DNA of 61,731 nt, counting the filler. It is 8 parts of 8 records of this genome, joined end to end, with 100 filler letters (N's around TTAATTAATTAA, not from the genome) between each part and the next. Parts side by side here need not be neighbours in the genome. Positions count along the whole stretch, not along the records: positions 23,621 to 29,107 come from SRR31147125_31962; 7 more parts are not named here. One strand, given 5' to 3'. Within the stretch, counting starts at the first letter, position 1. Each line of letters opens with the position of its first letter. Under the pieces are notes generated by a model that saw only the letters and a program-made list of their open reading frames with translations, ran no database searches and was not told the origin of the DNA. The position numbers were made by a program, and so were the translations under genes. Positions 1,047 through 55,502 of the stretch are shown here, in pieces.

Positions 1047-3554
1047 CTACTTTTCTAAAAATTTCAGTATGTTTTTGCCCAATTTATTCAAGGATTTCTT
1101 TACATCGTCTTTGGTGGCATCGGCAACAGCTTTTGTTGTTTTCGATAAATCCGCACTAACTTTAGGTTTTCCAACGGGCCCGTTAATAACCACCCCGGCA
1201 GGTAACATCGTAATTTTCTCATTCCCCGGAATTACTTCCAGTATTTTCTGAATATCCGGGCCAAATGCATCGCGCTCAACATTAAAATCTAAACGCATAT
1301 CGAGTAAACTTTCTGCATTTAAACTTCCTTCAACACGAGTTTCCTGCCCAATAACTTTGGTTGTAAAAGGCTTCAATAAAAGACTACCATTATCGATATC
1401 TATGTTGGCAATAAAATCATCAACGTAAACATTTTGCAATTTTTCTTTTTTCAGAATTCCGCTTAATTGATTAAAAACAGGAGAATCGACAATTTGTAAA
1501 TTTTTTGTACTAAAAAAGCCGTCGCCGTTTGCCGACGAAGCAATCAATTTAAGCTGCGGGCTTAACTGTCCTTTTATTCCGAGTTTCGAACTCAATGTAC
1601 CATCACTTTTTCCGGCCATTGGTACCAAATTCTGCATACCCGAAACCGTGTTGTACATTAACGGAATATTGAATTCACTGATATCAATTCCAAAATCGAA
1701 AAGTGGCCTGTTTTGCGTGGTATTTTTATACGAACCGTTCATATTCAACTCTCCGTCGAGCATGTTCATCTTTAAATTTTTCAGAACTACCTGTTGGTTA
1801 ACAGCTCTTATTTCTCCATTAATTTCATCTATTGGAATACGGTTAAAAATTGCACTTTCAATATCAGAACGGAAAGTAAAATCAATATTTTCGGGCACAT
1901 CAAAAGCCAGTATTTCCTCTTCCGGCTCAGCACCTTTTTCTTTTGCATCTCCTTTTTCTTCAGGAACTTCTTCAACATCGGCCTGCAAACGCAGCAATTC
2001 ATTAAAATTTACCTGATTCGATTTCAACTGGAAATTTCCTTTCAGTGTGCCATCTTTCAAAAAGTAATTCAGGTAGTTGGTAACTACACCCGACAACCTG
2101 AAATCGCTTTGTCCAATTGTCATAAAAAACTGGCTCAGATTAATATTTTTAGGCGAGAAATCGAGTTTCCCCTGTGGCACAACTATTTTTTGAGTGAGTT
2201 CCTGCGAATCGAACATAAAATTGTCGAGAACAACCACACCATCCGATTTAATCTTATCGTATGCTTCGTTTTCAATATCGGAATAGTTGCCAATTGCAAC
2301 AAGGTTGGCATCAATTAAACCCGACATATTTACACTATCCAGCGGCAAAGCATCTTTTAAATGCGAAAGGTTTACCTTCCCGATTATTGAACCGTTAAAA
2401 TGTGCATCGCTAACCGGTGTACTAACATTCAGTTTTAAATCAACCGGATTTTCCTTAATCTCGGCATGAGCTTTACTTATATTAATTGTAGTCAAATCCA
2501 ATTCGCCCTGTGGTTTTTCAATCAACACATTGGCACTAATATTCTTAATATCTTCGGGCATGTCGGCATATTGCAGGTTACCATTATCCACATTCATTTT
2601 TAAATTGAAAGCCGGATAATTCTCTCCCGCATAAATTCCATCAACTTTTCCGCTAATCGTTGCAGAACCCCTTGTTGTAATATCTTTTAAATATTCTTCG
2701 TAAACTGGCGGAACCAAGGCAAGAAAATTCTCAAAGTCTGATTCTTTGGTTTCAATTGCCAAATCTATCAACATGGTATCCGATGGCATTTCAACACTTC
2801 CGGTAAGCTGCAGGGGTAAACGATTTATCAGTAATTCGTTTTCGGCAATGGTAAATTTCATTTTGTCCAGGTCAACATCTAAAGCAGTGGTAATGTCGAG
2901 CACTGTATTCGAAATGTATCCAACCTTATCGTATTCCAGCGAAAAATCGTTAACCACGCCCTTTGTTTTCAACTGGGTTGTGTTTCCATACATTTCGCCC
3001 GAAATATCAAAATTAAAGTCATTCAAACTAAGCTTTGTTAGTACCGATTTATCATCGTAAACCAAGCTTGCATTTCGTATCTCAATCTTATCAAGTTGCA
3101 GCTGAAATGGATTCTCCTCTTCTTCGGTATCGCTCATTTCTGTATTTTCAGGAGCCGATTCCGGAGCCACATCCCAATTGGCTTTGCCGTTTTCTTTAAC
3201 CAGCAAATTAATGGTTGGAGATGCCATAATTATTTTCTCCACTTGCATTGCATCCGGGTTAAAAAGCGAAACCAGATTCATGGTAGTTTTTACCTTATTG
3301 ACGCTTAAAAGTGTATCGCCGGAAAATTCGTCAACTCCGCAAATTACAAGGTCTTGAAATTCGGCACTAACCTTTGGAAACTGTTTGATTAACGACAATT
3401 TTAAATCGTTTAGTTCAACCTTTGCATTAACTTGTTTATTTAGGCTTTTCTGGGCAACATCCAATATATTTTGTTTGAAAAACACAGGTATTGCCAGTAG
3501 CATTCCTACCAGTACAATAAATATTATCAGGACGATTAATACGACTTTTTTCAT
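1047..3554 (-). CDS. AsmA family protein
   Basis: N-terminal membrane anchor followed by 835 aa beta-rich body with GKANWD motif typical of Bacteroidetes AsmA proteins. Confidence 0.85.
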   Translation of the reverse strand: MKKVVLIVLIIFIVLVGMLLAIPVFFKQNILDVAQKSLNKQVNAKVELNDLKLSLIKQFPKVSAEFQDLVICGVDEFSGDTLLSVNKVKTTMNLVSLFNPDAMQVEKIIMASPTINLLVKENGKANWDVAPESAPENTEMSDTEEEENPFQLQLDKIEIRNASLVYDDKSVLTKLSLNDFNFDISGEMYGNTTQLKTKGVVNDFSLEYDKVGYISNTVLDITTALDVDLDKMKFTIAENELLINRLPLQLTGSVEMPSDTMLIDLAIETKESDFENFLALVPPVYEEYLKDITTRGSATISGKVDGIYAGENYPAFNLKMNVDNGNLQYADMPEDIKNISANVLIEKPQGELDLTTINISKAHAEIKENPVDLKLNVSTPVSDAHFNGSIIGKVNLSHLKDALPLDSVNMSGLIDANLVAIGNYSDIENEAYDKIKSDGVVVLDNFMFDSQELTQKIVVPQGKLDFSPKNINLSQFFMTIGQSDFRLSGVVTNYLNYFLKDGTLKGNFQLKSNQVNFNELLRLQADVEEVPEEKGDAKEKGAEPEEEILAFDVPENIDFTFRSDIESAIFNRIPIDEINGEIRAVNQQVVLKNLKMNMLDGELNMNGSYKNTTQNRPLFDFGIDISEFNIPLMYNTVSGMQNLVPMAGKSDGTLSSKLGIKGQLSPQLKLIASSANGDGFFSTKNLQIVDSPVFNQLSGILKKEKLQNVYVDDFIANIDIDNGSLLLKPFTTKVIGQETRVEGSLNAESLLDMRLDFNVERDAFGPDIQKILEVIPGNEKITMLPAGVVINGPVGKPKVSADLSKTTKAVADATKDDVKKSLNKLGKNILKFLEK

Positions 3555-3704
3555 GACTTTTTCTTTGGAATCAAAAATACGTAAATGAATTGCAAAATTT
3601 GGTGAGAAAATGTTAAAAAAGATGGAAGACTCTCTCCGCTTCCGGTTCGGGTTTTGTTGAAACTATCGACTTCACTATGTCTTATTAATTACTTGGTTCT
3701 AACT

Positions 3705-3771
3705 CCCTAAATCCCTAAGGGGGGACTTTGGGCAGCCAGTATCACAAAGAAAGGGGAGGTTAGGTGGGGTC
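3705..3771. repeat. Imperfect GC palindrome plus an orphan half-palindrome (REP-like remnant)
   Basis: ccctaaatccc...gggactttggg hairpin at 3705-3732; ggggaggttaggtgggg half-site at 3753-3769. Confidence 0.4.
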
Positions 3772-3843
3772 AGATATTCCCAGAACATTACTAATGGTAC
3801 CACATTTGAGAACCGAAAGCTTCGTAGAAGCACGAAGTATTCC

Positions 3844-5091
3844 TTACAATTCCCCAATCACCATTCTCCGCAGCAACTGCAATGCTGTTTGTGCCGAACG
3901 GACAATATTTCGTTCGCGGTTTTTACCCACAAAAATGTATTTCTTCGCAAACGTTTTTTCTGGGCCCGAAACTGCAATCCACACCGTTCCCACAGGTTTT
4001 TCTTCTGTTCCGCCACCCGGACCGGCAATACCGGTTGTAGCAATCGAATAATCAGTATTCATTACACGTTTTACACCTTCGGCCATTTGGCGGGCTACTT
4101 GCTCGCTAACTGCTCCAAATTGCTCAAGGTTTTCTTTGCTAACGCCCAGTACATTTTCCTTTATTTCGTTAGAATACGATGTTACCGAGCCTTGATAATA
4201 TTCTGAGCTACCCGAAACCGATGTAATTAAATGCGAAATATAACCGCCTGTACAACTTTCGGCAACGGCCAGTGTTTTGGCTTTTTCAACCAAAATCCGG
4301 CCAATTACTTCTGATAAAGTTTCGTTATCGTACCCATAAATTGCTGCCGGAATTATTGGTTTCAACTTTTCAATTTGGGCTTCCACATCATCGCGAAGAA
4401 TTCCTTCGCTCTCTCCCATTGCCGACAAACGCAAACGTACCGACATTGGATTGGGCAGGTAGGCCAGTTTTATATGTTCGGGCAGTTGGTCTTCCCATTT
4501 TTCTATGCGTTCGGCCAGCATCGATTCCGGAATTCCCTGCGTTAAAACTGTTTTATGGTAAATGGCTTTTGTGCGGCGGGATGCTCTTAATTTTGGCAAC
4601 AATTCATGCTCAATAAGGTATTTCATTTCGAAAGGCACACCCGGCATAGACACAAAAATAGTATTGTTTTTCTCGAACCACATTCCCGGTGCAGTTCCCG
4701 TTTTATTGGGTAAAACAGTGCAACATTCGGGCAACATCGCCTGGTCGCGATTCAGTTGATTCATATCAACACCGCGGCTTCTAAACATTTCGGAAATATG
4801 CGTTAACGTTGGCTCGTGAAAAACCAAACCAGTGTTAAAATACTCGCAAAGGGTATGTTTTGTAATATCGTCTTTTGTTGGGCCGAGTCCGCCGGTTATT
4901 ACTACCAAATCCACATTTTTTTCAGCATTATTAATGGCTGCAGTAATGTGTTCGTGGTCGTCGTGCACCGATGTTATCTGGTAAATTTCAATGCCATTCA
5001 GGTTAAACTGTTCGCCCATCCAGGCCGAGTTGGTATCTACAATCTGGCCGATTAATATTTCGTCGCCAATGGTAATTATTTCTGCTTTCAT
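3844..5091 (-). CDS. cinA: Competence/damage-inducible protein CinA (MoCF-like + PncC NMN deamidase)
   Basis: IGDEILIGQIVDTN, TGGLGPT.DD, MPGVPFEM, AESCTGG, TGIAGPGGG motifs. Confidence 0.95.
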   Translation of the reverse strand: MKAEIITIGDEILIGQIVDTNSAWMGEQFNLNGIEIYQITSVHDDHEHITAAINNAEKNVDLVVITGGLGPTKDDITKHTLCEYFNTGLVFHEPTLTHISEMFRSRGVDMNQLNRDQAMLPECCTVLPNKTGTAPGMWFEKNNTIFVSMPGVPFEMKYLIEHELLPKLRASRRTKAIYHKTVLTQGIPESMLAERIEKWEDQLPEHIKLAYLPNPMSVRLRLSAMGESEGILRDDVEAQIEKLKPIIPAAIYGYDNETLSEVIGRILVEKAKTLAVAESCTGGYISHLITSVSGSSEYYQGSVTSYSNEIKENVLGVSKENLEQFGAVSEQVARQMAEGVKRVMNTDYSIATTGIAGPGGGTEEKPVGTVWIAVSGPEKTFAKKYIFVGKNRERNIVRSAQTALQLLRRMVIGEL

Positions 5092-5191
5092 NNNNNNNNN
5101 NNNNNNNNNNNNNNNNNNNNNNNNNNNNNNNNNNNTTAATTAATTAANNNNNNNNNNNNNNNNNNNNNNNNNNNNNNNNNNNNNNNNNNNN
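5092..5191. other. Artificial contig linker
   Basis: N-run + TTAATTAATTAA (stops in six frames) + N-run. Confidence 0.98.
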
Positions 5192-5800
5192 TTTTAGTTT
5201 AACAAGTTTGTATCCAAAGCGTTCTTTTGCGATTCTAGAACCACGTATAATTTTTTCAGGCACCGCTTTTGGCCACATAATTTTCTTTTCTATCCAATCA
5301 ACATCTTTAACAAATCCAAGTGTTTCTAAATGTTTGTGATAATAAGGGAAATTATAGATTGTAATAAACATATTAAGTTGATCAAAACCATCAACAAGCA
5401 TCCCCTGGCGGTCTAGGTCAGTAAAACCAATAGGACCAATAAGTTCATTCATGCCTTTTTCTTTCGCCCAAGCTTCAACAGCAGCAATTAATGCTTTTGT
5501 GACTTCTATATCATCAATCATATCAATGCGCGTAAAACGACCAGTTTTGCGCTTATAAGCATCATTCCAAGCATGGTTGATAATACCTGCAATACGTCCA
5601 ACGACTTTGTTGTCTTTGTAAGCTAAAAATCTAATAGATTCACAATATGCATGTGCAGGATTTTTCTTTTGGTGAAAAACTGTGCGTTCATCTATTGATA
5701 AAGCAGGGACAAATGCTTCAACATGTTTATACATGTGATTAGGGAATTCTGTAAAACGCCATCCATCACGCCAACTTTTTACTTCTTTAATTGTTATCAT
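5192..5800 (-). CDS. GNAT-like acetyltransferase (3' truncated by contig end)
   Basis: Start MITIKEV at 5800 after GGAGG RBS; VVGRIAGIIN, GPIGFTDLDRQGMLVDGF, YNFPYY motifs. Confidence 0.8.
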
Positions 5801-5974
5801 TGTATTTCCTCCGATATCATATATTGTATAATAAATACCATTAAACTTCAATTGATTCTTAAAATATGATGTTTTTTGGTCAAAGTGTTGACTTATGGCT
5901 TTGTTATAGATAAAATAATATATATGTATATATATAGTATATAAATATAAATATAGTATAAATAGGGGACATTT

Positions 5975-6697
5975 ATGCAAAACTACCGTAGTGAGTACAT
6001 TGAGAGTCATGAAATTGATTTATTGGAATTGCTGAGCGAGTTAAAACGTAGAATATGGATTATTCTTAGTTTTTTCATCGCTTTTTTATTTATGGGATAT
6101 GTTTATACAACATATTTTACGGATGCAAAATATACATCGAGTGCATCTGTGATGGTTATAGTTGAAGAAGCTGATGAAGCAGGTGAATATGATTATTTAA
6201 ATGCAGCAAGACTACTTGATTCAGTTGCACAACTGATGACCATGGATGTCATTATGGAAAAAGTTAGTGATTCTTTAGCATTAGATATTCCAAATGAATC
6301 TTTAGGATCATTTGCAAATGGTATATCTGTAGAAGCATCTGAAACAGCATTTTTCATCGAAGTTTCTTATACATCAACTGATAAAGTACTTGCTAAGGAT
6401 ATTGTTAATGAAGTGATTGATCAAACAATATATGTGACATCAGAAACTCAAGAAATTCCGTTTTTAGTCGATCATATCAAGCGTGTATCATATGCGTATG
6501 ATGGATTATATAGCTCTCCAAACAAAGTCATGTATATGGCAATATTTGGTCTAATTGGCATCATGTTAGGTTCAGGGTTGGTCTTATTACTGTATATGTT
6601 GAAAAATACCGTAAAATCAAAAAATGAAATCGTTGAACTTATTCATTTACAAGTATTAGGAGAAATACCAGAATATGAAGTTAGAGGTATTGAGTAA
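5975..6697 (+). CDS. Polysaccharide co-polymerase / BY-kinase modulator (CpsC/TkmA/Wzz family)
   Basis: EIDLLELL N-terminus, two TM helices, SPNK, C-terminal VLGEIP; coupled to the kinase gene. Confidence 0.9.
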   Translation: MQNYRSEYIESHEIDLLELLSELKRRIWIILSFFIAFLFMGYVYTTYFTDAKYTSSASVMVIVEEADEAGEYDYLNAARLLDSVAQLMTMDVIMEKVSDSLALDIPNESLGSFANGISVEASETAFFIEVSYTSTDKVLAKDIVNEVIDQTIYVTSETQEIPFLVDHIKRVSYAYDGLYSSPNKVMYMAIFGLIGIMLGSGLVLLLYMLKNTVKSKNEIVELIHLQVLGEIPEYEVRGIE

Positions 6698-7422
6698 TGC
6701 AGTTATTTAAAAAACGACATCAATCTCATCGACTAGAAGACTATAGATATTTAGTGAGTAAAGAAAAACCTCTGTCATATATTACAGAATCTTTTCAAAA
6801 GGTTGCACTTAATATAGAAACAGCAAATATTGATCATCAATCCAAAATAATTCAAGTGACATCAACACAACCAGATGAAGGCAAATCAACATTAATTACA
6901 AATGTTGGATACTTGCTTGCACAACAGCAAAAGAAAACGTTACTGATAGACTTAGATCTAAGAAGACCAAAACTCCATAAAATATTTCATACACCTAATA
7001 AATTTGGACTAATTGACTATATCATTGGTAAATGTGATTTGGAACAAATTATTAATCATTGCGAAGATTCAGATGTTCATTATATCGTTGCTGGTACAAG
7101 AACTCAACTTATCACACATGTCTTATCATCTCAGAAATTAAAAGATTTACTTGATGAACTTAATCAATCTTTTGACTACATTTTACTTGATTCGCCTCCG
7201 GTGTTATCTGTATCTGATGCACTTTATATTTCAAAACTTAGCGATGCAGTGATCTATGTGATCGCAGAAGATCGTGCGAAAAAATCTGCGATTAAAGAAG
7301 GTGTCGAGCTATTAATGCAGCAAAATGCTAAAATTTTAGGCGCGGTACTCACTCAAAAAACGAGTCATTTCCATACTTATAAATATAAATATGATAAAAC
7401 CTACTATTTAAAAAATGACTGA
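6697..7422 (+). CDS. Bacterial tyrosine kinase (CpsD/CapB/PtkA family)
   Basis: Walker A PDEGKST, IDLDLRRP, LLDSPP, C-terminal Tyr cluster YKYKYDKTYY. Confidence 0.92.
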   Translation: MQLFKKRHQSHRLEDYRYLVSKEKPLSYITESFQKVALNIETANIDHQSKIIQVTSTQPDEGKSTLITNVGYLLAQQQKKTLLIDLDLRRPKLHKIFHTPNKFGLIDYIIGKCDLEQIINHCEDSDVHYIVAGTRTQLITHVLSSQKLKDLLDELNQSFDYILLDSPPVLSVSDALYISKLSDAVIYVIAEDRAKKSAIKEGVELLMQQNAKILGAVLTQKTSHFHTYKYKYDKTYYLKND

Positions 7423-7437
7423 AGATAGGAAAAAACA

Positions 7438-8430
7438 ATGAAACTACTCATTTTTGGATATCAAGATCAACAAATCAATACTTTTATGCACACTATCCGC
7501 CATCAGGTAAGTTTTATTGATATAACTTCTGATATTGAAGAAGTAAGGATGAAAACAATTGATACATTTTATGATTTAATTATATTTGATTCAAAAATGA
7601 TTCATCAATTAGCTGATAAAGAGATGATTTCGTTAAAAGTACAAATAAAAAATCATATGAAGCTATATATTTATATTAGAAACAGTGATTTAGTTCATAT
7701 GAAACGCTATATTAGATGCTATCATGATGGTATGATTTTCGAGCATTATACAAAAAAACGGATGGAAGACATCTTTTTAAGCATTTCAAATCATGCACCC
7801 AATTTACAAAAACGGATGTTATCCAAGTTATTTGTTGAAATTATTACATTAAGAGATATCGAAACTTCTGCACACATTGAAAAAGTAGCACACTATTCGA
7901 CATTGATAAGTATGGGACTTCGAGAGTTAGGATTATATGATTTTTTATCAGATAGATTTATCGATGACCTATATTTTGCAGCCCACTTTCATGATATTGG
8001 AAAAATTGGGATACCTGATGAGATTTTATTTAAGCCGGGTAAGTTCACCAGTGAAGAATTTGAACAAATGAAAAAACATAGTTTATATGGCGATCAAATT
8101 TTTAAAAAACTCGTCGATCATCATCAAAAAAATAGATATATTATCATGGCTAAAATCATTGCATTACATCATCATGAAAAATGGGATGGCAGTGGATACC
8201 CTTCAAAATTAAAAGGAAAAGAAATACCTTTGATTGCAAGAATTGTTGCTCTTGCTGATGTTTATGATGCACTTTGCAGTGTTAGAAGTTATAAGGAAGC
8301 TTTTTCACATGAAAAAGCAAAAGCAATCATCGTCAATGATAAGGGAAAACACTTTGATCCTGATGTAGTTGATGCATTCTTGCTGATGGAACAATATTTC
8401 ATAAAATATAATCAAAGCCACACATCATGA
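7438..8430 (+). CDS. HD-GYP domain phosphodiesterase with degenerate N-terminal domain
   Basis: HDIGKIGIPD, HHEKWDGSGYP, ADVYDAL, GKHFDP. Confidence 0.9.
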   Translation: MKLLIFGYQDQQINTFMHTIRHQVSFIDITSDIEEVRMKTIDTFYDLIIFDSKMIHQLADKEMISLKVQIKNHMKLYIYIRNSDLVHMKRYIRCYHDGMIFEHYTKKRMEDIFLSISNHAPNLQKRMLSKLFVEIITLRDIETSAHIEKVAHYSTLISMGLRELGLYDFLSDRFIDDLYFAAHFHDIGKIGIPDEILFKPGKFTSEEFEQMKKHSLYGDQIFKKLVDHHQKNRYIIMAKIIALHHHEKWDGSGYPSKLKGKEIPLIARIVALADVYDALCSVRSYKEAFSHEKAKAIIVNDKGKHFDPDVVDAFLLMEQYFIKYNQSHTS

Positions 8431-8515
8431 AAATTAAAATTATATATATAGATACATATATTATTTATTATCTCGTGAATACATGAAAAAATGCCACTTT
8501 TGAGTATATATATTA

Positions 8516-8542
8516 TAGTAGTGCTATTAGTAGTGCTATAAT
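8516..8542 (+). promoter_or_regulatory. 12-bp tandem direct repeat overlapping an extended -10 element
   Basis: TAGTAGTGCTAT x2 (8516-8527, 8528-8539); TGCTATAAT at 8534-8542. Confidence 0.5.
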
Positions 8543-8565
8543 TTATGTAAAGGGGAGTGGTTTTT

Positions 8566-9291
8566 ATGTTTTTAATAACACTTGATAGAAGTCAAAAAAT
8601 ACCATTATACATACAAATTTATCATCAGATTAAATCTCATATATTAGATGGACAACTAAAGCACCAAGAAAAGCTCACATCAGAAAAACAATTCGCTGAA
8701 TTTTATGATGTGAGCAATTTTATTGTTAAACGTGCTTATAAATTACTAGAAGATGAAGGTTATGTCCGTAAAATTAAAGGTAAAGGTGTCTTTGTTCATT
8801 ATAGACAGACCATAGAAATTGATCTATCCAATAAATCTTGTATACCGATGCCAATAAATCATGCATATACGTATCGCATGATTTATCATGCAAATATAAA
8901 AGACACATCTTACTTGAGTAAAACTTGGGAAAATAAACCGGATAATCATGTAGAACTTTATCGATTGCTTGTGACAAACCAAAAGTCACCCATCGCGTTT
9001 ATTGAATGTTTTATTGATCAATCGATGCACTTGAAATTAGAACGTTTATTTAATTCAAATAAAAGTTTTTTGAATTTCTTTAATGAAGATATGTCTTTAG
9101 ATGCATCGCAAGAATCCATCATCAATACAGCGATTGCAGATGAGATGCTCATTGAAGCATTAGAGATTGAGCCTGGGTCATTAACAACTATTGTCAACAC
9201 TTATTTTAAATCAAAAAAGTTTGGTGATTTTTGCTATATGAAAACATACTATGTTGCAGCATATACAGAATTGAAGGTGAGTGACATATGA
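8566..9291 (+). CDS. GntR family regulator (HutC/UTRA-like)
   Basis: PLYIQI...KLTSEKQFAEFYDVS..VKRAY..L..EG...GKGVFV winged HTH. Confidence 0.9.
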   Translation: MFLITLDRSQKIPLYIQIYHQIKSHILDGQLKHQEKLTSEKQFAEFYDVSNFIVKRAYKLLEDEGYVRKIKGKGVFVHYRQTIEIDLSNKSCIPMPINHAYTYRMIYHANIKDTSYLSKTWENKPDNHVELYRLLVTNQKSPIAFIECFIDQSMHLKLERLFNSNKSFLNFFNEDMSLDASQESIINTAIADEMLIEALEIEPGSLTTIVNTYFKSKKFGDFCYMKTYYVAAYTELKVSDI

Positions 9292-15901: not shown

Positions 15902-16001
15902 NNNNNNNNNNNNNNNNNNNNNNNNNNNNNNNNNNNNNNNNNNNNTTAATTAATTAANNNNNNNNNNNNNNNNNNNNNNNNNNNNNNNNNNNNNNNNNNN
16001 N
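15902..16001. other. Artificial contig linker
   Basis: N-run + TTAATTAATTAA + N-run. Confidence 0.98.
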
Positions 16002-23520: not shown

Positions 23521-23620
23521 NNNNNNNNNNNNNNNNNNNNNNNNNNNNNNNNNNNNNNNNNNNNTTAATTAATTAANNNNNNNNNNNNNNNNNNNNNNNN
23601 NNNNNNNNNNNNNNNNNNNN
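23521..23620. other. Artificial contig linker
   Basis: N-run + TTAATTAATTAA + N-run. Confidence 0.98.
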
Positions 23621-23785
23621 TTTTTTACTAATTTTCGTCGTTTTTAATCGTTTATACTCTTGATCCAAAAGACGGCGGGCAATACCGGACATACCCTCAT
23701 TAAGCTCTTTAGATAGCCATATAAGGCGTTTATATTCTTCCGGACTCATCCTGACCGTAAACAATTTATGTCGCAATCTAACCAT
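23621..23785 (-). CDS. Ribbon-helix-helix DNA-binding protein (3' truncated)
   Basis: KLFTVRMSPEEYKRL..LSKELNEGMSGIARRLL beta-alpha-alpha pattern. Confidence 0.7.
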
Positions 23786-23792
23786 TGCAGGG

Positions 23793-23821
23793 ATACTATA
23801 TCCTTGTTTTGCAAATGTCAA
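23793..23821 (-). promoter_or_regulatory. Sigma70 promoter of the RHH gene (probably leaderless transcript)
   Basis: TTGACA (23821-23816), 17 nt, TAGTAT (23798-23793), then 7 nt to ATG with no SD. Confidence 0.7.
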
Positions 23822-23877
23822 TTAATCCTGGACGCACGATATAGATTTAACTACCAAGGGCAGTTTTCATGCCAAGG

Positions 23878-24276
23878 TTATTTATTCTTCGGTGGTTGCC
23901 ATTGTTTATTTCCCGATGGCTGCATTGGCTTGTCAATATCCCATCTTGATTTGGTCGAAGATGCGCCTGGAGTATTGTAAGGATTAATTTCTGCCTCAAA
24001 CCTGGTGCCAGGCTCAACATCTCTATCAATCTTAACATTTAAATTCCGATGATTTTTCGAGCTCAAGCCAGAATACCCAGACTCGGTACCAGCATTCTGA
24101 AAACCTTTTTGTTCAGCAAGTAAATCCCGAATTTCGGCAAGAAGACGAATCCCCTTGTTAATCTTCAAATACCAACACCAAACCTCTCTCATAATCAACC
24201 AAACAACTATTGTAAAAACAAGCATAGCAGAACCAAGCTTAATCATATCCATGATCACATAATCAGCATAATTCAT
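23878..24276 (-). CDS. Hypothetical single-TM membrane protein
   Basis: AAGGG RBS; TM helix followed by REVWCWYLKIN..IRLLAEIRDLL. Confidence 0.65.
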   Translation of the reverse strand: MNYADYVIMDMIKLGSAMLVFTIVVWLIMREVWCWYLKINKGIRLLAEIRDLLAEQKGFQNAGTESGYSGLSSKNHRNLNVKIDRDVEPGTRFEAEINPYNTPGASSTKSRWDIDKPMQPSGNKQWQPPKNK

Positions 24277-24667
24277 AAAAATTTCCCTTTTAAAAGGTTA
24301 AAATTGAATTCATTACTAAATAAATCAAAAAGACTTACCACACCCCACACAAATGAGACAAACAGTTTTAAAGGCTTTTCTGGGCCTAAATGGCCGAAGG
24401 TCTTGACTTGGTTTTCCAGATGTTTTTTTAAAAGCAATTTTTAAGAGGAAGTTGGGGGGATCTTGTGAGGATGGGTGTCTAAGATGCAAGGGGGAAGGCT
24501 TCGAATACCTTCCGACAAGTACATAAATCCAACCGATTCCGGGGCTTGCGCTCATTGCCCAGGGCAAATCAAAACGGGGATATTAACAGCGGCAAAACCG
24601 ACGCAAAATCATTCTACACTCACGTGCCGCTCAAGCAACACTAATAATATTTTCAAAAGTTAATATT
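24277..24667. other. Structured intergenic region; candidate replication origin / packaging signal
   Basis: GC-richer non-coding stretch with hairpins gaagg..ccttc, ttgccc-a-gggcaa, agcggca..tgccgct. Confidence 0.4.
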
Positions 24668-24856
24668 CTATATTGTTTCTGGTTCCTTAACCGCATTTTG
24701 CATATCAATATACTGCCTGCAAAGATCCCACCGGTGGGCACAACAATCATTACAAATAAAACGGGCATCGTCAGCAATGCCAAGCGATTTCATAACTTCA
24801 TCAAGCCACATATCCCAGACTTCCCAATTATTTTTTTTACATGCTTCACACTTCAT
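24668..24856 (-). CDS. Small C4 zinc-finger-like protein (62 aa)
   Basis: CEAC...ICNDC; GGGGG SD-like sequence upstream. Confidence 0.6.
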   Translation of the reverse strand: MKCEACKKNNWEVWDMWLDEVMKSLGIADDARFICNDCCAHRWDLCRQYIDMQNAVKEPETI

Positions 24857-24887
24857 TTATTTAGACCCCCAGAATCACGAATATATA

Positions 24888-25037
24888 TTATATTCTTTTC
24901 AATTTCTTTAAAGTGCATTCATTACAAATTTTATGGTCCTTAACTAAGGTCATGATGTTTAACTTTTCCTCTATTTCTGTAAATTTTTTTCCACACTTAG
25001 GACAAAATTCAGATTTTTTTTTACGTTTATTATCCAT
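24888..25037 (-). CDS. Small C4 zinc-finger-like protein (49 aa; not in ORF track)
   Basis: MDNKRKKKSEFCPKCGKKFTEIEEKLNIMTLVKDHKICNECTLKKLKRI; GGGGA RBS. Confidence 0.65.
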   Translation of the reverse strand: MDNKRKKKSEFCPKCGKKFTEIEEKLNIMTLVKDHKICNECTLKKLKRI

Positions 25038-25046
25038 ACTTTCCCC

Positions 25047-25514
25047 CTAATACCATTCCCCATTAATAACAAAATTTTCATATTCAGCATCATTTTTTGA
25101 AAGCTGTTCGTCATAACCTTGAATCAACTGCTCAATTATTTGAGACTTTGACATATTTAAATATTTAGACAGGCATTTTAAATCAATGGCTGCTTTGCGA
25201 CTTATCGCAAATGATGCGGGCCGTTTCTTTTTGTATTCATCAATCTTCTTTCTGCCTGCACCCAGGCGGCGGCCGCCATGTTTCTTCGTCTTATCCTGAA
25301 AAAGTGTTTCCTGGGACTCTTTTATGTCCAGCTTCAAATCAGATGTGGCTAATATTTCTTGAAGATGGGTCCAGGGGATAGATTTTCCATGCACCATAAT
25401 AATATTATTAGGATACCTTTTAATGGTAGCATGCAGGCCTCCGGATTTGTTTAAGATATTCATACCGTCTGTCACAATCGCTTTCAATTCTTCTATTGAT
25501 TTAACCATGTGCAT
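25047..25514 (-). CDS. DNA-binding protein with GGxRxGAGRK motif and C-terminal RHH
   Basis: HGGRRLGAGRKK followed by SFAISRKAAIDL..LSKYLNMSKSQIIEQLI. Confidence 0.7.
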   Translation of the reverse strand: MHMVKSIEELKAIVTDGMNILNKSGGLHATIKRYPNNIIMVHGKSIPWTHLQEILATSDLKLDIKESQETLFQDKTKKHGGRRLGAGRKKIDEYKKKRPASFAISRKAAIDLKCLSKYLNMSKSQIIEQLIQGYDEQLSKNDAEYENFVINGEWY

Positions 25515-25660
25515 CTCCCTGTTTCATATCTTTATCTTGATTTTATTAATAACATAATCAAGCCAACGTGTCAAGAAAAAATTATTATTATTTTCAATTA
25601 TTTTAGCTATTTTCGAATAGTTTTACCCACACAGCTAAAAAACCGCCTTTAAAACGAATA

Positions 25661-26026
25661 TTATTCTTTATGGTTATAATTATATTTTCGGATACCTTTT
25701 TCATCCGGCTGCATCAAGATCCCCTCATCGGTCATAATTAAAACAAGCTCAAAAGCTTGATTAGCTATAATATTCAATTCAATCATTAACTCCCTGTATG
25801 AGACATATCCTTTTTCCTTTATTATTTTTTTTGCCTCTAAATAATCCCGATAATTCCATTTATGATGGATTGATCCTGATAGCTCTTCAAATTTCATTTG
25901 GCTGTCAAAAAACCGATGTTGAACCTCCATATTGCGAATCAAATCAGGATTGTCCTGTATCACACTGGATAGTTCATCAAGAATTGTATCGAATAAATCT
26001 AAGAAATTAAGAAATTTATCTGACAT
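25661..26026 (-). CDS. Stand-alone FtsK-gamma-like winged-helix protein
   Basis: YLEAKKIIKEKGYVSYRELMIELNIIANQAFELVLIMTDEGILMQPDEKGIRK has the spacing pattern of the FtsK gamma domain. Confidence 0.6.
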   Translation of the reverse strand: MSDKFLNFLDLFDTILDELSSVIQDNPDLIRNMEVQHRFFDSQMKFEELSGSIHHKWNYRDYLEAKKIIKEKGYVSYRELMIELNIIANQAFELVLIMTDEGILMQPDEKGIRKYNYNHKE

Positions 26027-26053
26027 CGAAATAGATATTGAAAAAATCAAAAA

Positions 26054-26665
26054 CTATCTCAGTAGGGCAATAATCCAAAAATGTAAAGGATAAGCCACAT
26101 AATAAAAATACTTCGTAATTTTTCTATTGATTTGCCCAGGGCAGGGCAGAGCAGGTAATTTTTTATGCATTAAAAGCGCCGCGGCCGAACCTGCCATATG
26201 ATAATAATCACCGGTCAGCCATGATATCAAAAGGAAAAAAGCTGCCAGAGCCAATATCAAATAAACAAGGCGGTGATGCAAAAAATAAATGGCCAATACA
26301 ACAAAAATATAAACAGATACAACATTTGTAATAATAAGCAGGGGGCAGAGATTTAGAGCAATTATTCCGTAACGCTCATACAAAATTATGGTGATCAGTC
26401 CAAACAAAAGAATGTACAAATCATTGAGCCGGTGAACGTCCGGAAATAACGAACCATAAACAGGCTGGGCGATACAAGCGCAAGTAATAAGGGAAATAAG
26501 ATAAAGTTTTAAATCTTTGGTGTATTTTAGCCCCTGGGTGATCATGTAGGCAAAGAGGGGGAAGGATAGGGTGCCGATACTTCGTAAAATAAATTCGTAT
26601 TCCGGATAAAAGAAAATACAGCCATGATCAATAATCATTGCGGTAAAAGCGATGACTTTAACCAC
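26054..26665 (-). CDS. TraX/TrbP family membrane acetyltransferase
   Basis: KVIAFTAMIIDH, IG.LSFPLFAY....G...T, KYFYYVAYPLH; GTG start after GGGAG. Confidence 0.88.
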   Translation of the reverse strand: MVKVIAFTAMIIDHGCIFFYPEYEFILRSIGTLSFPLFAYMITQGLKYTKDLKLYLISLITCACIAQPVYGSLFPDVHRLNDLYILLFGLITIILYERYGIIALNLCPLLIITNVVSVYIFVVLAIYFLHHRLVYLILALAAFFLLISWLTGDYYHMAGSAAALLMHKKLPALPCPGQINRKITKYFYYVAYPLHFWIIALLR

Positions 26666-26807
26666 GGCCACTCCCGATGTGCATGACATAATGCAAAATT
26701 CGATATGCAGCAATCAGACAAGCTATGGTAACCACCGGGACACCGATCAGGGTGGCAATGTTTGATATGAAAAGAGGTAGATCGAAACCTGCAGGCAAAG
26801 TAATCAT
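26658..26807 (-). CDS. Coat-like 49-aa single-TM protein without signal peptide (not in ORF track)
   Basis: MITLPAGFDLPLFISNIATLIGVPVVTIACLIAAYRILHYVMHIGSGRG; fills the gap and overlaps the traX start. Confidence 0.7.
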   Translation of the reverse strand: MITLPAGFDLPLFISNIATLIGVPVVTIACLIAAYRILHYVMHIGSGRG

Positions 26808-26826
26808 TTTTAATGATCCATTTTAA

Positions 26827-27291
26827 TTAAAGCTTTATGGATAAACCCAAGGCCAATGCACTACATGATAAAGCGCCAATCAATAGAGATATATTTTTAC
26901 TCTGAATATTTGATGCATCTAAAATCATAATGGTTTCTACTGTTCCTGGAGAAGTCGTCAAATCACTAACGGTAATTTCCGATCTCTGATAAAAGGCGTT
27001 CTTTATAATTTCAATCTCTTCGGGGCTGGCCGTAGTAAATTGATAAGGGTCAGACACCGTAAAATGCAAACCGGAATTGTTATAGTTTAATGAATCAATA
27101 AGCCCGGTTCTTTCTTCGGCTAATAGCTCAGATTTTGAAAAAACTAATAACAAAAACATAATACCAAAAAACGAGTGAAACCGGGAAGACCCGGCATTGA
27201 TAGCGGAAACAATTGCCCGGATTATTATCCCCAGGAGAAGAGATATCACGACTAATCCAAAACCATTTGCAAATGCTTCTAAATCAATCAT
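26827..27291 (-). CDS. Membrane protein, possible minor virion protein
   Basis: Hydrophobic N- and C-terminal helices flanking a soluble segment; overlaps the upstream stop. Confidence 0.6.
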   Translation of the reverse strand: MIDLEAFANGFGLVVISLLLGIIIRAIVSAINAGSSRFHSFFGIMFLLLVFSKSELLAEERTGLIDSLNYNNSGLHFTVSDPYQFTTASPEEIEIIKNAFYQRSEITVSDLTTSPGTVETIMILDASNIQSKNISLLIGALSCSALALGLSIKL

Positions 27292-27671
27292 TTAAATAAA
27301 GTCCTTTCCTCTTCCTCTGTTTTACTTGACCACACCAAGCGAGATGAGGATTCTTCATCTTCAAAATTATCAGGTCTTCTTTTTTCAAATTCAGACAATT
27401 TATAAGTGAACATCTTTTCTTCAAACTCTTCTTTTAAATAGGATTCCCGCCATGTTCCCTTGTTGGCTTGCCACCGCCCCCAAGCTCCCTTGGCGTCTTT
27501 GGCTTCTGCGCTCATGCCTAAAAATTGTTTGATATGTACAAAACCGACAAGGATTAACATAATTGTTACCATTGAGGTCAAAAGTAATCCTAAATCTGTT
27601 TTTACAAAACCAACCAACCCTTGATAAAACTGTGTATAAAGTTGGTTTAACAATTGATTTGCTTCCGGCAT
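27288..27671 (-). CDS. Coat-like TM protein with charged C-terminal extension
   Basis: KTD-x10-IxLI-xx-GF aligns without gaps to the 72-aa coat-like ORF. Confidence 0.65.
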   Translation of the reverse strand: MPEANQLLNQLYTQFYQGLVGFVKTDLGLLLTSMVTIMLILVGFVHIKQFLGMSAEAKDAKGAWGRWQANKGTWRESYLKEEFEEKMFTYKLSEFEKRRPDNFEDEESSSRLVWSSKTEEEERTLFK

Positions 27672-27687
27672 GGATTATCCTTTGTTG

Positions 27688-27712
27688 CCGGGGGATCATG
27701 TAGACCCCCCGG
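27688..27712 (-). terminator. 10-bp hairpin immediately after the major coat gene
   Basis: ccggggggtc-tacat-gatcccccgg with one G.U pair on the minus strand; no U tract. Confidence 0.55.
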
Positions 27713-27723
27713 GCTAATGAATG

Positions 27724-27954
27724 TTAGCCTCTGCTCCAGGTGCGTTTAAGGTATTTATAGCCAACGAACAGCATATTGACACCCACAAAGCCAATGAGGA
27801 TTGTCTGAATTAAACCAGACAGGCTGCTGATGTCAAAAGCGCCAAAAATGGCATCAATACCAGTCGGTGTACTGGCAAAGGCATTGCCGATCATGGCAAA
27901 CAGAGACGTCATAAAGGTGGTGATCAAAATACGGGTTCTTGTGAAAAATTTCAT
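27724..27954 (-). CDS. Inovirus major coat protein (pVIII-like)
   Basis: Strong GAGGAGG RBS; signal peptide ending AFA; 49-aa mature chain with amphipathic N-terminus, TM helix and basic tail YKYLKRTWSRG. Confidence 0.8.
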   Translation of the reverse strand: MKFFTRTRILITTFMTSLFAMIGNAFASTPTGIDAIFGAFDISSLSGLIQTILIGFVGVNMLFVGYKYLKRTWSRG

Positions 27955-27973
27955 ACTTCCTCCTCAAAAAAAA

Positions 27974-28192
27974 TTAACGGGTAAAGACCTTAACAAGCAC
28001 ACCAAACCCCGCAATTATCAGCACTATTGCAAGAAAACCGGCAACAGCTGTACTGACATCTGTTTTGATTCCGGTAAACATATCTGCCGATATCAGCGGA
28101 GTCCATGTCTGGGTTGATGTTGAGGCCATAGACAAGGCGGGCAGGGTGCCCACGAACAAAATGCCAGTGAGTAAACGATTAAGAAAACACAT
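27974..28192 (-). CDS. Second pVIII-like coat protein
   Basis: Signal peptide ending SMA; 49-aa mature chain, TM helix, tail VKVFTR; start overlaps the secretin stop. Confidence 0.7.
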   Translation of the reverse strand: MCFLNRLLTGILFVGTLPALSMASTSTQTWTPLISADMFTGIKTDVSTAVAGFLAIVLIIAGFGVLVKVFTR

Positions 28193-29107
28193 ATCGTATA
28201 ACCTCACTATTGATTAATATGGATACGGAAAAAGTGCTTGTATCCTGATTATCAAGGCCCATCTTTAACCAGCTTAAAGCAGACCTTGACACGCTGCCTT
28301 TGTTATATTTCAAACCGCCGATCAGGGTTGTTTCCCCTGCTCTGAAAACGATTTGATTTTTTATATTCCGAACGGTCACCTGGGGCTGCTGGTACACGTT
28401 AGGTTCCGTACCCACTTCCAGGAAACCGGAAATACTTTGTATGTTTGCAGTGAATTGGGTGGATATCACGTTACCGGATACTGATGGTTTCAAGGTTAGG
28501 ATGAGGCCGGATGATTGGGAGCCGAATTCATAGCCCTGGACAACATTATCAGTTGACCCGTTTAAGGCTGATACAGTGATATTTTTGATATAGGGTATCT
28601 TCTCTGATACGTCGAGTTCAGCCTTGGAGCCATTTAAGGCGGAGATCCGGGCGGACTGCAAGACAGAAAAATTTTTAAATTCGTCCAGGGACTCTACAAC
28701 GGATTTAAGGGATAGGTGGCCAGCTCCCAGATTCACAGCAAAAGCAGATCCACTGCCTTTGACACCTAAGGACAATGGCTTTTTATAAACATCAGTAAGA
28801 GTGGCAGAAATTTTAGACCAATCTACGCCATGTTTAAATGCTTTGCTGTCCTGGGCTTCCAAAATCATGACGTCAAAGACAACCAGGGTAAGATATGGGT
28901 TGTCTTTGAAATAATCATAGATTGTCAAATAGGTATAATAATCGGTGTTAAAGACAATCCTGGATGACAGTTCATCATAAAAAGATTCTTCCACACCAAA
29001 AGATGTTAATAATTTTATCAAATTCTCCTGGGTGCCAGGCATGAGCACCTTGACAAAGGCCGGGGAAGTTTTACGGACGATGAGCACACCTGATTTATAT
29101 TTAAAAA
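28179..29107 (-). CDS. Secretin (pIV/GspD/PilN-like), 5' truncated
   Basis: GVDWS, SALNG..A.L.V....PY, GLILTLKPSV, QPQV..R......RAGET.LIGG. Confidence 0.85.
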
Positions 29108-29207
29108 NNNNNNNNNNNNNNNNNNNNNNNNNNNNNNNNNNNNNNNNNNNNTTAATTAATTAANNNNNNNNNNNNNNNNNNNNNNNNNNNNNNNNNNNNN
29201 NNNNNNN
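29108..29207. other. Artificial contig linker
   Basis: N-run + TTAATTAATTAA + N-run. Confidence 0.98.
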
Positions 29208-40874: not shown

Positions 40875-40974
40875 NNNNNNNNNNNNNNNNNNNNNNNNNN
40901 NNNNNNNNNNNNNNNNNNTTAATTAATTAANNNNNNNNNNNNNNNNNNNNNNNNNNNNNNNNNNNNNNNNNNNN
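40875..40974. other. Artificial contig linker
   Basis: N-run + TTAATTAATTAA + N-run. Confidence 0.98.
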
Positions 40975-49403: not shown

Positions 49404-49503
49404 NNNNNNNNNNNNNNNNNNNNNNNNNNNNNNNNNNNNNNNNNNNNTTAATTAATTAANNNNNNNNNNNNNNNNNNNNNNNNNNNNNNNNNNNNNNNNN
49501 NNN
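49404..49503. other. Artificial contig linker
   Basis: N-run + TTAATTAATTAA + N-run. Confidence 0.98.
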
Positions 49504-55402: not shown

Positions 55403-55502
55403 NNNNNNNNNNNNNNNNNNNNNNNNNNNNNNNNNNNNNNNNNNNNTTAATTAATTAANNNNNNNNNNNNNNNNNNNNNNNNNNNNNNNNNNNNNNNNNN
55501 NN
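55403..55502. other. Artificial contig linker
   Basis: N-run + TTAATTAATTAA + N-run. Confidence 0.98.

Follow-up and report, generated by a model that had tools for sequence, protein, structure and literature searches.

A contig that very probably carries half of an inovirus genome

The contig at positions 23621..29107 of the window (the whole stretch of DNA that was analysed, 61,731 bases in length) very probably represents roughly half the genome of an inovirus, a filamentous phage of Desulfobacter that is temperate or chronic. The 13 open reading frames (ORFs) of the contig are all open and all lie on the minus strand, and every ORF listed in an earlier reading made from the letters alone (here the sequence-only reading) was recovered in the order given there. 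That reading had proposed an inovirus or inovirus-derived system, a proposal borne out by related loci, which carry genes for Zot/pI, Ace/pVI-like, pIII-like and Rep-like proteins and an integrase by a tRNA gene. The features of the contig are as follows, with the evidence for each in brackets.

28179..29107, minus strand: pIV-type secretin, C-terminal 308 codons (PF00263, phrog_1012)
27974..28207, minus strand, likely start ATG at 28192: c77, putative pVIII-like coat precursor, 77 amino acids (aa) (conservation, PHROG coat matches)
27724..27954, minus strand: c76, putative second pVIII-like coat precursor, 76 aa (PHROG coat matches, ribosome-binding site (RBS))
27288..27671, minus strand: p127, leaderless single-pass membrane protein, 127 aa (conservation)
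26827..27291, minus strand: p154, membrane protein with a predicted oligonucleotide/oligosaccharide-binding (OB)-fold outer domain, 154 aa (AlphaFold2 (AF2) model, structure comparison)
26658..26807, minus strand: p49, leaderless small hydrophobic protein, 49 aa (conservation)
26054..26713, minus strand, likely start ATG at 26689: TraX-family polytopic membrane acyltransferase (PF05857)
25661..26050, minus strand, likely start ATG at 26026 (121 aa): p129, FtsK-gamma-like winged helix by profile, 129 aa (homolog profile)
25047..25514, minus strand: p155, probable DNA-binding regulator with a ribbon-helix-helix (RHH)-like C-terminal part, 155 aa (weak profile matches)
24888..25037, minus strand: zn49, CxxC...CxxC zinc-ribbon ORF, 49 aa (sub-threshold Pfam matches, RBS)
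24668..24856, minus strand: zn62, cysteine-rich ORF, 62 aa (ORF and CxxC...CxxC pattern alone)
24277..24667, no strand: non-coding region, 391 bases (fold z, Rfam, dif search)
23878..24276, minus strand: p132, single-pass membrane protein, 132 aa (hydropathy, homolog in the related locus L004)
23621..23821, minus strand: RHH-like small regulator, 67 aa, end cut by the contig end (weak Arc- and NikA-like matches)

The secretin matched PF00263 (E 1.4e-14; 54.5 bits against a cut-off of 27.5, the Pfam cut-offs quoted here and below being the curated bit-score cut-offs) and phrog_1012, 'protein IV of M13' (1.4e-13). Its ORF aligns with residues 146-453 of 453-aa homologs at 76-81% identity and so begins at homolog residue 146, indicating that the contig end cuts the gene and that the N-terminal ~145 codons are lost. 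A large protein collection held 38 secretin homologs at E <= 0.001, of which the best 23 were 76-81% identical and mostly 453-470 aa long; those bearing a name were named after Desulfobacter, several of them being encoded on contigs 1.9-6.5 Mb long. When the aligned secretins were used for scanning, this identified five loci in species genomes, three in IMG/VR and nine in metagenomes, whereas IMG/VR scans with a single secretin or TraX protein gave no match. Nine of the 12 IMG/VR and metagenome loci were analysed, the short L014, L015 and L019 being left out.

The element in these relatives is a prophage of about 10-11 kb. A Zot/pI gene was found directly upstream of the secretin gene in 13 of the 13 related loci that reach there (L003, L004, L005, L008-L013, L016, L018, L026 and L039), with scores of E 1e-30 to 1e-31 for PF05707 and 1.9e-47 for phrog_197, and the pI stop overlaps the secretin start. 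Before Zot lies a gene for a 108-110-aa DUF2523 protein (phrog_306 'Ace-like', 2e-11), and next before it one for a protein of 455-494 aa that bears a leader at its N-terminus and ends in a hydrophobic anchor, which had no family match and which we take, from its sequence, to be pIII-like. The fullest relatives also hold a 97-99-aa protein, whose gene occupies the position of the single-stranded DNA (ssDNA)-binding protein, and a 427-aa protein that matched phrog_33635 ('endonuclease', 2.1e-10). An alternative Rep-like gene in the relatives encodes 403 aa, with a match to phrog_11698 (function unknown, 3.1e-43) and a histidine motif picked out by eye; Pfam scans of the relatives' flanks gave no match to Rep families. 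In L039, a complete copy, the gene order is CI-like repressor, zinc-finger protein, DNA methyltransferase, Rep-like protein, 99-aa protein, pIII-like protein, pVI-like protein, Zot and secretin, continuing with c77, c76, p127, p154, p49, TraX, an excisionase-like helix-turn-helix protein (as in L005), an integrase and tRNA-Leu.

The order c77-c76-p127-p154-p49-TraX was kept in nine related loci, including the distant L018, where the secretin is 51% and TraX 35% identical to those of the window. The six genes that follow the secretin gene, TraX included, are conserved as protein in diverged loci (tblastn E 1e-5 to 1e-48), and by blastn most of this stretch was without a DNA match in the related loci; these small ORFs are thus not chance ones. 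The half beyond TraX gave no close copy in a DNA search of 161 genomes from the Desulfobacter family, to which D. vibrioformis belongs, the best match being 72% identical over 174 bases.

Loci for conjugative (F-like) pili, type IV pili and type II secretion can likewise contain a secretin, small membrane proteins resembling pilin and TraX, and the NCBIfam models nearest to the secretin were MshL and GspD, far under their cut-offs. We nevertheless consider it extremely unlikely that the contig derives from such a locus. Pfam scans of the contig and of the flanks of L003-L006, L018 and L026 found no VirB4/TraC, relaxase, coupling protein, PilB or prepilin peptidase, while these flanks hold Zot, an Ace-like pVI, pIII-like and Rep-like proteins and an integrase at a tRNA gene, all within a multi-copy unit of 10-11 kb. 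Flanks with VirB4/TraC, a relaxase or PilB and without Zot had been named beforehand as the finding that would point to a transfer or pilus locus; the comparison was made on the relatives, and it favours a phage.

Coat gene candidates and small membrane proteins downstream of the secretin gene

Both c77 and c76 have the architecture of a coat precursor, that is, a mature part of ~50 aa with one membrane helix and a basic C-terminus. The leader of c77 ends ...SMA; its mature part, ~49 aa long, opens with acidic residues, which a hydrophobic core and C-terminal K/R follow. The leader of c76 ends ...AFA, and its mature part, likewise ~49 aa, has acidic residues first, then a hydrophobic helix and four basic C-terminal residues. 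The leaders are conserved in the families of both proteins (10-11 relatives) and end in A-x-A (ALA before TT; SFA before TP), giving mature parts of 45-49 aa whose new N-termini are T/S-rich; the cleavage sites were read by eye. A hydropathy scan gave one membrane segment each for c77, p127, p49 and p132, two for c76 (leader and helix), three for p154 and five for TraX.

Profile matches point in the same direction. c77 is conserved in the relatives (tblastn 1e-5 to 1e-19), and six of the eight members of its family matched structural PHROGs at E <= 0.1, the best match being to phrog_1646 'major coat protein' (0.0018). For the c76 family the count was seven of ten; the relatives in L018 and L017 matched phrog_6548 'major coat protein' at 1.1e-6 and 3.5e-6, and c76 of the window matched phrog_28600 at 0.0038 and phrog_6548 at 0.011. 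Compared profile to profile, c77 and c76 gave a probability of 16.6%. Because c76 has the best Shine-Dalgarno sequence of the operon (GAGGAGG), it is more likely than c77 to be the major coat protein, and we regard it as the best candidate for that role. A second copy of c76 is carried by L005.

The place usually taken by the coat gene, between the 97-99-aa gene and the pIII-like ORF, measures 80 bases in L004 and 0 in L039. There is thus no room for a coat gene before pIII, and the coat genes have moved behind pIV. The expanded virion gene set that the sequence-only reading had described is therefore an overstatement: the small virion genes have mainly been relocated downstream of pIV, and the surplus is modest. 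The order of virion genes in inoviruses is accordingly not fixed, which matters for detectors that expect a coat gene beside pIII.

Two leaderless proteins complete the small membrane proteins of this block. p127, conserved in nine related loci, has one hydrophobic segment (27-45), behind whose helix come a basic motif that is conserved and an acidic tail that varies; no family was found in Pfam, PHROGs or NCBIfam, and the Atlas leads that it gave were dropped, their scores of 0.84-0.85 being under the level that counts. It is a candidate minor virion or assembly protein. p49 is also conserved in nine related loci (tblastn 1e-10 to 1e-15) and has one hydrophobic segment; it did not match p127 when the two were compared profile to profile. 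In the Ff phages pIII and pVI occupy one tip of the virion and the small leaderless proteins pVII and pIX the other. By this analogy p49 is a candidate pVII/pIX-type tip protein, and p49 and p127, leaderless and single-pass like the Ff tip proteins, may both serve at a tip.

p154 has a predicted OB-fold outer domain

p154 has three hydrophobic segments and appears as a protein anchored in the membrane at both ends, with an outer domain of ~65 aa (residues ~58-125). It is 52-56% identical in close (Desulfobacter-type) relatives and 28% identical in the distant L018, and its family is tiny: a search of 1.84 billion representatives gave 19 clusters at E <= 0.001. Shorter members (113-125 aa) begin at the second hydrophobic segment of p154 and resemble plain leader-bearing proteins.

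The AF2 model of p154, built with 21 sequences, had a predicted local distance difference test score (pLDDT) of 77.9, rising to ~90 for residues 60-123, which form a small beta-barrel with one helix. When this model was compared with every chain of known structure, the best match was the Shiga toxin 2 B subunit (Z 10.8, root-mean-square deviation (rmsd) 2.6, 70 of 72 residues aligned), followed by other AB5 B subunits (Z 8.3-9.5) and then by OB folds of the ssDNA-binding protein type at ~Z 7; Foldseek agreed (E ~1e-3, TM 0.77 on the target). The modelled domain thus has the same small OB fold as the AB5 B subunits (Shiga, heat-labile, pertussis S5 and typhoid PltB; Z 10.8 to 8.3, rmsd 1.9-2.9, 65-73 residues), while sequence identity to them is 4-16% and p154, in contrast, is membrane-anchored. 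Pfam and PHROGs scans of the locus found no A-subunit-like gene, and the likeness of the model to AB5 is one of fold only, the OB fold being common.

Inovirus tips are five-fold and AB5 B subunits are pentameric, which makes a pentameric p154 outer domain at the virion tip an attractive idea. p154 is a candidate minor coat or tip protein. We tentatively suggest from the model that it could be a virion tip protein, a proposal to which we give somewhat less than an even chance. If it is true, a B-subunit-like OB domain would be displayed by a membrane- or virion-anchored protein in a filamentous phage.

A TraX-family gene closes the morphogenesis block

The TraX gene ends the morphogenesis block and shows no damage in the window: its product matched PF05857 over profile positions 4-217 of 217 (E 5.3e-15; 56.4 bits against a cut-off of 25), phrog_5529 at 4.7e-8 and the NCBIfam model TrbP at 1.6e-6 (score 28 against a cut-off of 206). 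The large protein collection held 22 relatives at E <= 1e-5 with identities of <=63%, and all those with a source name were Desulfobacter-type. Its family is also present in other inoviruses. ORF9 of the phage XacF1, directly after pI, matched PF05857 at E 4.6e-46 and is 22% identical to the window TraX over 207 aa, and TraX-family genes, some annotated TrbP, are present in 12 phage records, all for inoviruses from Xanthomonas and Stenotrophomonas. TraX in an inovirus is therefore not new, XacF1/Cf1c being the precedent. A tblastn search of 50,697 phage records with the window TraX gave three uncultured 'Bacteriophage sp.' entries; the one that was opened, L002, held no inovirus genes and was dropped.

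F TraX acetylates the N-terminus of pilin, a small, leader-processed filament subunit. From the position of the gene and this analogy, TraX of the window might acylate the new N-terminus of the coat protein (c76 or c77), a suggestion that we rate as credible and a little short of evenly balanced. If it is true, the TraX proteins of unrelated inoviruses would modify the coat.

TraX could instead be cargo whose target is a surface structure of the host (such as pili, or a receptor, as might serve superinfection exclusion) or a lipid, and not the coat. The XacF1 report speaks for this, in that its authors remarked on the similarity of ORF9 to TraX and suggested an effect on host type IV pili. TraX is moreover broken or short in four of the ten loci that reach it (a frameshift in L003, an early end in L004, an internal deletion in L008 and two stops in L018), which indicates that it is dispensable for prophage survival; the rest of the locus was not lost with it, and the gene stands at the border of the variable module. 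Set against this, TraX is co-oriented with the coat genes, three genes downstream of them, inside a block conserved down to 35% identity, it lies within the morphogenesis operon of the unrelated Xanthomonas inoviruses too, and both coat candidates have predicted cleaved leaders, as does the known TraX substrate in F-pilin biology. A cargo function is accordingly possible but rather unlikely. The TraX-matching frame with two stop codons lies at L018:12292-12909, where TraX seems to be decaying.

p129 and a possible link to Xer recombination

The guess of the sequence-only reading that the 129-aa ORF is FtsK-gamma-like holds through its homologs and its family profile. p129 is 35-38% identical to two D. 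vibrioformis proteins; among its homologs, that of L026 (127 aa) matched PF09397 with 37.0 bits against a cut-off of 30.6 and that of L006 (121 aa) with 30.2 bits, just under it. The six best matches of a seven-member p129 profile (the window protein as first row) among PDB entries were all FtsK gamma domains (5.2e-6 to 6.6e-4), including 2j5o (5.2e-6) and the XerD-FtsK-gamma fusion 5dcf (3.7e-4), and a three-member profile found the C-terminus of host FtsK in 148 of the 161 genomes. By sequence, p129 reads as an N-terminal helical part joined to an FtsK-gamma-like winged helix.

The homologs of p129 have a recurrent neighbourhood. Of eight loci with strong homologs that were examined, six (from six genomes) have the gamma gene ~130 bases upstream of a gene for a XerC/D-like recombinase of 298 aa, whose identity from genome to genome is 89-95%; of the remaining two, one is a fragment and one the prophage copy itself. 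L026 likewise pairs the gamma gene with a recombinase (PF00589, 1.4e-43, plus a SAM-like N-domain), and both L026 and four of these loci have a variant dif-like site ~0.9 kb ahead of the gamma gene. Four closed chromosomes each have one canonical-type dif, plus one or two variant sites 65-235 kb away; the reversed pattern, used as a control, gave no sites in these chromosomes. The arrangement of variant dif-like site, ~0.9-kb gap, gamma-only protein and 298-aa recombinase (L051-L056; L026:8511-10850) occurs once or twice per genome, and this dif/gamma/Xer cassette of Desulfobacter could represent either a small element or a module devoted to recombination.

Dif-like sites also border prophages of the lineage. 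The D. vibrioformis prophage, in which the gamma gene comes right after TraX, begins at a variant dif-like site and ends at a site with the same first 15 bases that overlaps the end of the 403-aa Rep-like gene. At its left border the distant prophage L018 meets a canonical-type dif, beyond which lie housekeeping genes of the host. In the window p129 stands where sister prophages have their integrase. We infer that the lineage may have two ways of integration, one by integrase at tRNA genes and one by Xer at dif-like sites, with p129 belonging to the second. More specifically, p129 might act with a Xer-type recombinase in integration or excision at a dif-like site, replacing the integrase module; judged from sequence, this is a speculative proposal that we hold to be unlikely rather than likely. 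Equally doubtful is the idea that a stand-alone copy of FtsK gamma could switch on a Xer recombinase away from the septum, with the variant-dif cassette as a landing pad.

There is close to an even chance that p129 is an ordinary winged-helix regulator or DNA-binding phage protein without any link to Xer recombination. Winged helices are common regulators, the p129 profile also matched IclR and MarR at 1e-3, and the neighbouring genes are regulator-like. Several results on the window itself weigh on the same side: p129 had no Pfam match at E <= 1; its AF2 model (pLDDT 70.6) gave no Foldseek match at E <= 0.001, FtsK gamma appearing at ranks 5-6 with E ~1.3; no recombinase follows p129; and the contig has no dif-like site at <=7 mismatches of 26, a search in which shuffles gave 0.07 matches per 5.5 kb at the loosest setting. 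A purely regulatory role fits less well with the fact that the top six profile matches are all FtsK gamma domains, with the finding that several genomes have homologs standing beside a Xer-like recombinase and a variant dif site, and with the position of p129 in place of the integrase module; in addition, dif-like sites lie on either side of the sole gamma-bearing prophage whose two ends were both observed.

Distribution, copy number and damage of the prophages

A profile of p154, the most lineage-specific gene, placed the element in nine of the 161 genomes, and four of these nine carry 5, 3, 3 and 2 copies. The five copies of one closed chromosome (L039-L043) have ~9.7 kb in common at 93-99% identity. 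A tRNA gene (Leu-CAG, Pro-TGG, Pro-GGG or Glu-CTC) is present in four of the five copy stretches and none in the fifth; direct contact of the tRNA gene with the prophage end was checked for L039 only. Similarity among the five copies stops ~0.2 kb past TraX, and the downstream integrase region differs, which argues that the part beyond TraX is a swappable lysogeny module.

Three independent assemblies end within the N-terminal third of the secretin gene, at residue 146 in the window, 127 in D. vibrioformis (L006:1) and 102 in D. curvatus (L007:1). The multi-copy state, or repeats, may explain these breaks in short-read assemblies; alternatively, the secretin gene may be a hot spot for insertions. 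An isolate prophage, L010, has ~1.1 kb inserted in its secretin gene (5445-6552). Damage is seen elsewhere too: the pIII-like gene of L005 (1483-8327) is in three pieces, separated by an insertion sequence with a DDE transposase and by an rve/AAA_22 element, and the methyltransferase gene of the D. vibrioformis copy is reduced to a remnant.

Such damage in relatives (the split pIII-like gene, the secretin insertion, the methyltransferase remnant and the broken or short TraX) would be expected of a decaying or domesticated inovirus, either a cryptic prophage or a secretion filament kept by the host. The window contig, with all of its ORFs open, does not share it, and five copies that are 93-99% identical and lie at different tRNA genes point to recent spread. 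A public contig containing the whole stretch (described below) had a word depth of 75, and four other contigs that touch the stretch had 16, 24, 28 and 114, contig depth being a poor measure of copy state. A remnant is therefore improbable.

Other observations weigh against reading the contig as half of an inovirus genome. The window holds no sequence before secretin residue 146, and pI, pIII, pVI and Rep are known from the relatives only; virions are predicted here from the genes. The coat calls for c77 and c76 rest on architecture and weak profiles, the window proteins scoring only 0.004-0.012, and profiles of the two matched no coat protein among solved structures. The OB fold of p154 is widespread, and a common fold shows no function. 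The defects of TraX in four of ten loci count on this side as well. On balance we retain the assignment to an inovirus, and the findings describe a well-defined, multi-copy, apparently recently active lineage whose hosts are sulfate reducers that can be cultivated. Copies are present in D. vibrioformis DSM 8776, in D. curvatus DSM 3379 and in the genome of a third isolate, which opens the predictions made here to bench work.

Two further observations concern the surroundings of the prophages. Genes of toxin-antitoxin type (for BrnT/BrnA, a HicB-like antitoxin and AbiEii) lie in or beside the D. vibrioformis prophage (L006:3505-3980, 7208-7597; L026:4222-5170). L004 is an intact prophage on a 72-kb contig of a metagenome-assembled genome labelled Planctomycetota, and its secretin is 97% identical to Desulfobacter ones; the label is likely a binning error, and otherwise the host range would be wider.

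Regulatory ORFs and the intergenic region

Beyond p129 the contig holds small ORFs that have counterparts in the regulatory parts of other copies, where homologs of p155, p132 and the last ORF were found. p155 matched the transcription regulators phrog_3887 (5.3e-4) and phrog_876 (6.3e-4) and the Pfam Ltp repeat (23.0 bits against a cut-off of 23.2), and its homolog in the regulatory region of prophage L003 is 40% identical, so that its sequence suggests a probable DNA-binding regulator. The last ORF (23621..23821) gave weak Arc-like (phrog_3431, 0.042) and NikA-like (0.071) matches; its homolog in L006, 50% identical, lies directly upstream of the 403-aa gene matching phrog_11698, which, by eye only, may be a rolling-circle Rep. 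Both p155 and the last ORF had earlier been labelled RHH proteins; the labels were not confirmed, resting as they do on these weak matches only.

zn49 has a good RBS and many sub-threshold matches to zinc-ribbon families in Pfam, the best at 0.0017, and zn62 had no family match in Pfam or PHROGs; the related loci held no homolog of either. p132 has a hydrophobic segment at 11-29, and over its first 70 aa it shares 46% identity with an ORF of 86 aa from the prophage-bearing L004. The 391-base gap was no more structured than shuffles when folded as DNA (z +0.66 and +0.57 for the two strands), had no Rfam match at E <= 1 and contained no dif-like site, so that its earlier description as a structured intergenic region was not confirmed.

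The contig within the window and its continuation

The window consists of eight contigs chained by spacers of 44 N + TTAATTAATTAA + 44 N. The spacers lie at the following positions.

5092-5191: spacer
15902-16001: spacer
23521-23620: spacer
29108-29207: spacer
40875-40974: spacer
49404-49503: spacer
55403-55502: spacer

The stretch 23621..29107 (5487 bases) is exactly one contig, bounded by two of these spacers, and being a single contig among joined ones it is not physically linked to the neighbouring genes of the window. G+C across the eight contigs runs from ~0.27 to 0.53. Next to the phage contig lie contigs with genes for sulfatase- and glycoside-hydrolase-like proteins, which does not resemble Desulfobacter. 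The contig set of the window is probably a mixed bin.

No terminal overlap was found in the phage contig, and a repeat search gave short repeats only, probably by chance. Promoter-like sites (22 against 17.4 +/- 3.8 expected from shuffles) and terminator-like sites (8 against 5.0 +/- 2.3) were not enriched. The sequence does continue in one public run, which is possibly from the same sample and so not independent: a contig of 9866 bases contains the whole stretch at 3318-8804 with zero differences and zero joints, extending 1062 bases past the secretin side and 3317 past the other. Together these extra bases would roughly suffice for the missing part of the secretin and for pI, pVI, pIII, an ssDNA-binding protein and a Rep. 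Four 'loose ends' in public contigs were disregarded, since those contigs have merely 18-33 letters in common with the stretch.

A possible assembly scheme and comparison with known systems

A scheme that would join these parts is the following. The pI-pIV channel would extrude ssDNA, which c76 and c77, after insertion by Sec and processing, would coat; p49 and p127 would serve as leading-tip proteins, and p154 would present its OB-fold domain outside the membrane or virion. TraX would acylate the new N-terminus of the coat protein, as F TraX does with pilin. p129 and a Xer-type recombinase would integrate or excise the phage at a dif-like site, in place of the integrase module of the sister prophages, and the genes beyond TraX (p129, the RHH-like regulators, the two zinc-ribbon mini-proteins and the membrane protein) would form a variable module for lysogeny and regulation.

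The nearest known sequences are the IMG/VR contigs L008-L010, which belong to the same lineage (secretin 72-79% identical, same gene order) and differ in having an integrase after TraX, where the window has p129. They are catalogued there as viral contigs without description. With these three listed relatives, and with TraX annotated in cultured Xanthomonas and Stenotrophomonas inoviruses, the earlier view of an undescribed system does not hold in that form: the lineage is catalogued, but the literature searched contained no printed description of it, and the supplementary tables of Roux et al. 2019 may list it.

For p129 the closest parallel in role is XafT of the Vibrio satellite phage TLC-phi. 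This phage-encoded protein is reported to activate XerD instead of FtsK and so to drive integration at dif. The role proposed for p129 would be similar, and p129 is by profile a putative homolog of FtsK gamma. Within the literature searched we found no printed description of a phage gamma-domain protein. If the proposal is true, p129 would join XafT as another kind of Xer-activation factor in phages, acting as a direct mimic of the activator that the host uses, and would bear on how Xer-exploiting elements escape the need for FtsK, a question answered so far only for TLC-phi. To our knowledge, XafT has not been described as a homolog of FtsK gamma.

TraX of the F plasmid, the pilin N-acetylase, and TrbP of RP4 belong to the same Pfam family as the window protein, which matches it at full length; the phage locus differs in having no conjugation genes. 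Closer in context are Cf1c/XacF1 (Coriovirus), Xf109, Xf409, SMA6, XacF13 and fSU1, which like the window phage have a TraX-family gene inside the morphogenesis operon. They differ in that they lack a secretin gene, keep the coat genes at the usual place before pIII and infect hosts of another phylum. We know of no FtsK-gamma-like gene in these phages, for which no search was made. XacF1 is reported to integrate at dif by means of host XerCD.

With the Ff phages (M13, fd, f1) the window phage has in common the pI-pIV export pair and leader-bearing coat candidates of ~50 aa when mature. Ff phages have a single pVIII encoded before pIII, and are without TraX, a p154-like protein and integration. 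In contrast, the window phage has its small virion genes after pIV, among them two pVIII-like genes.

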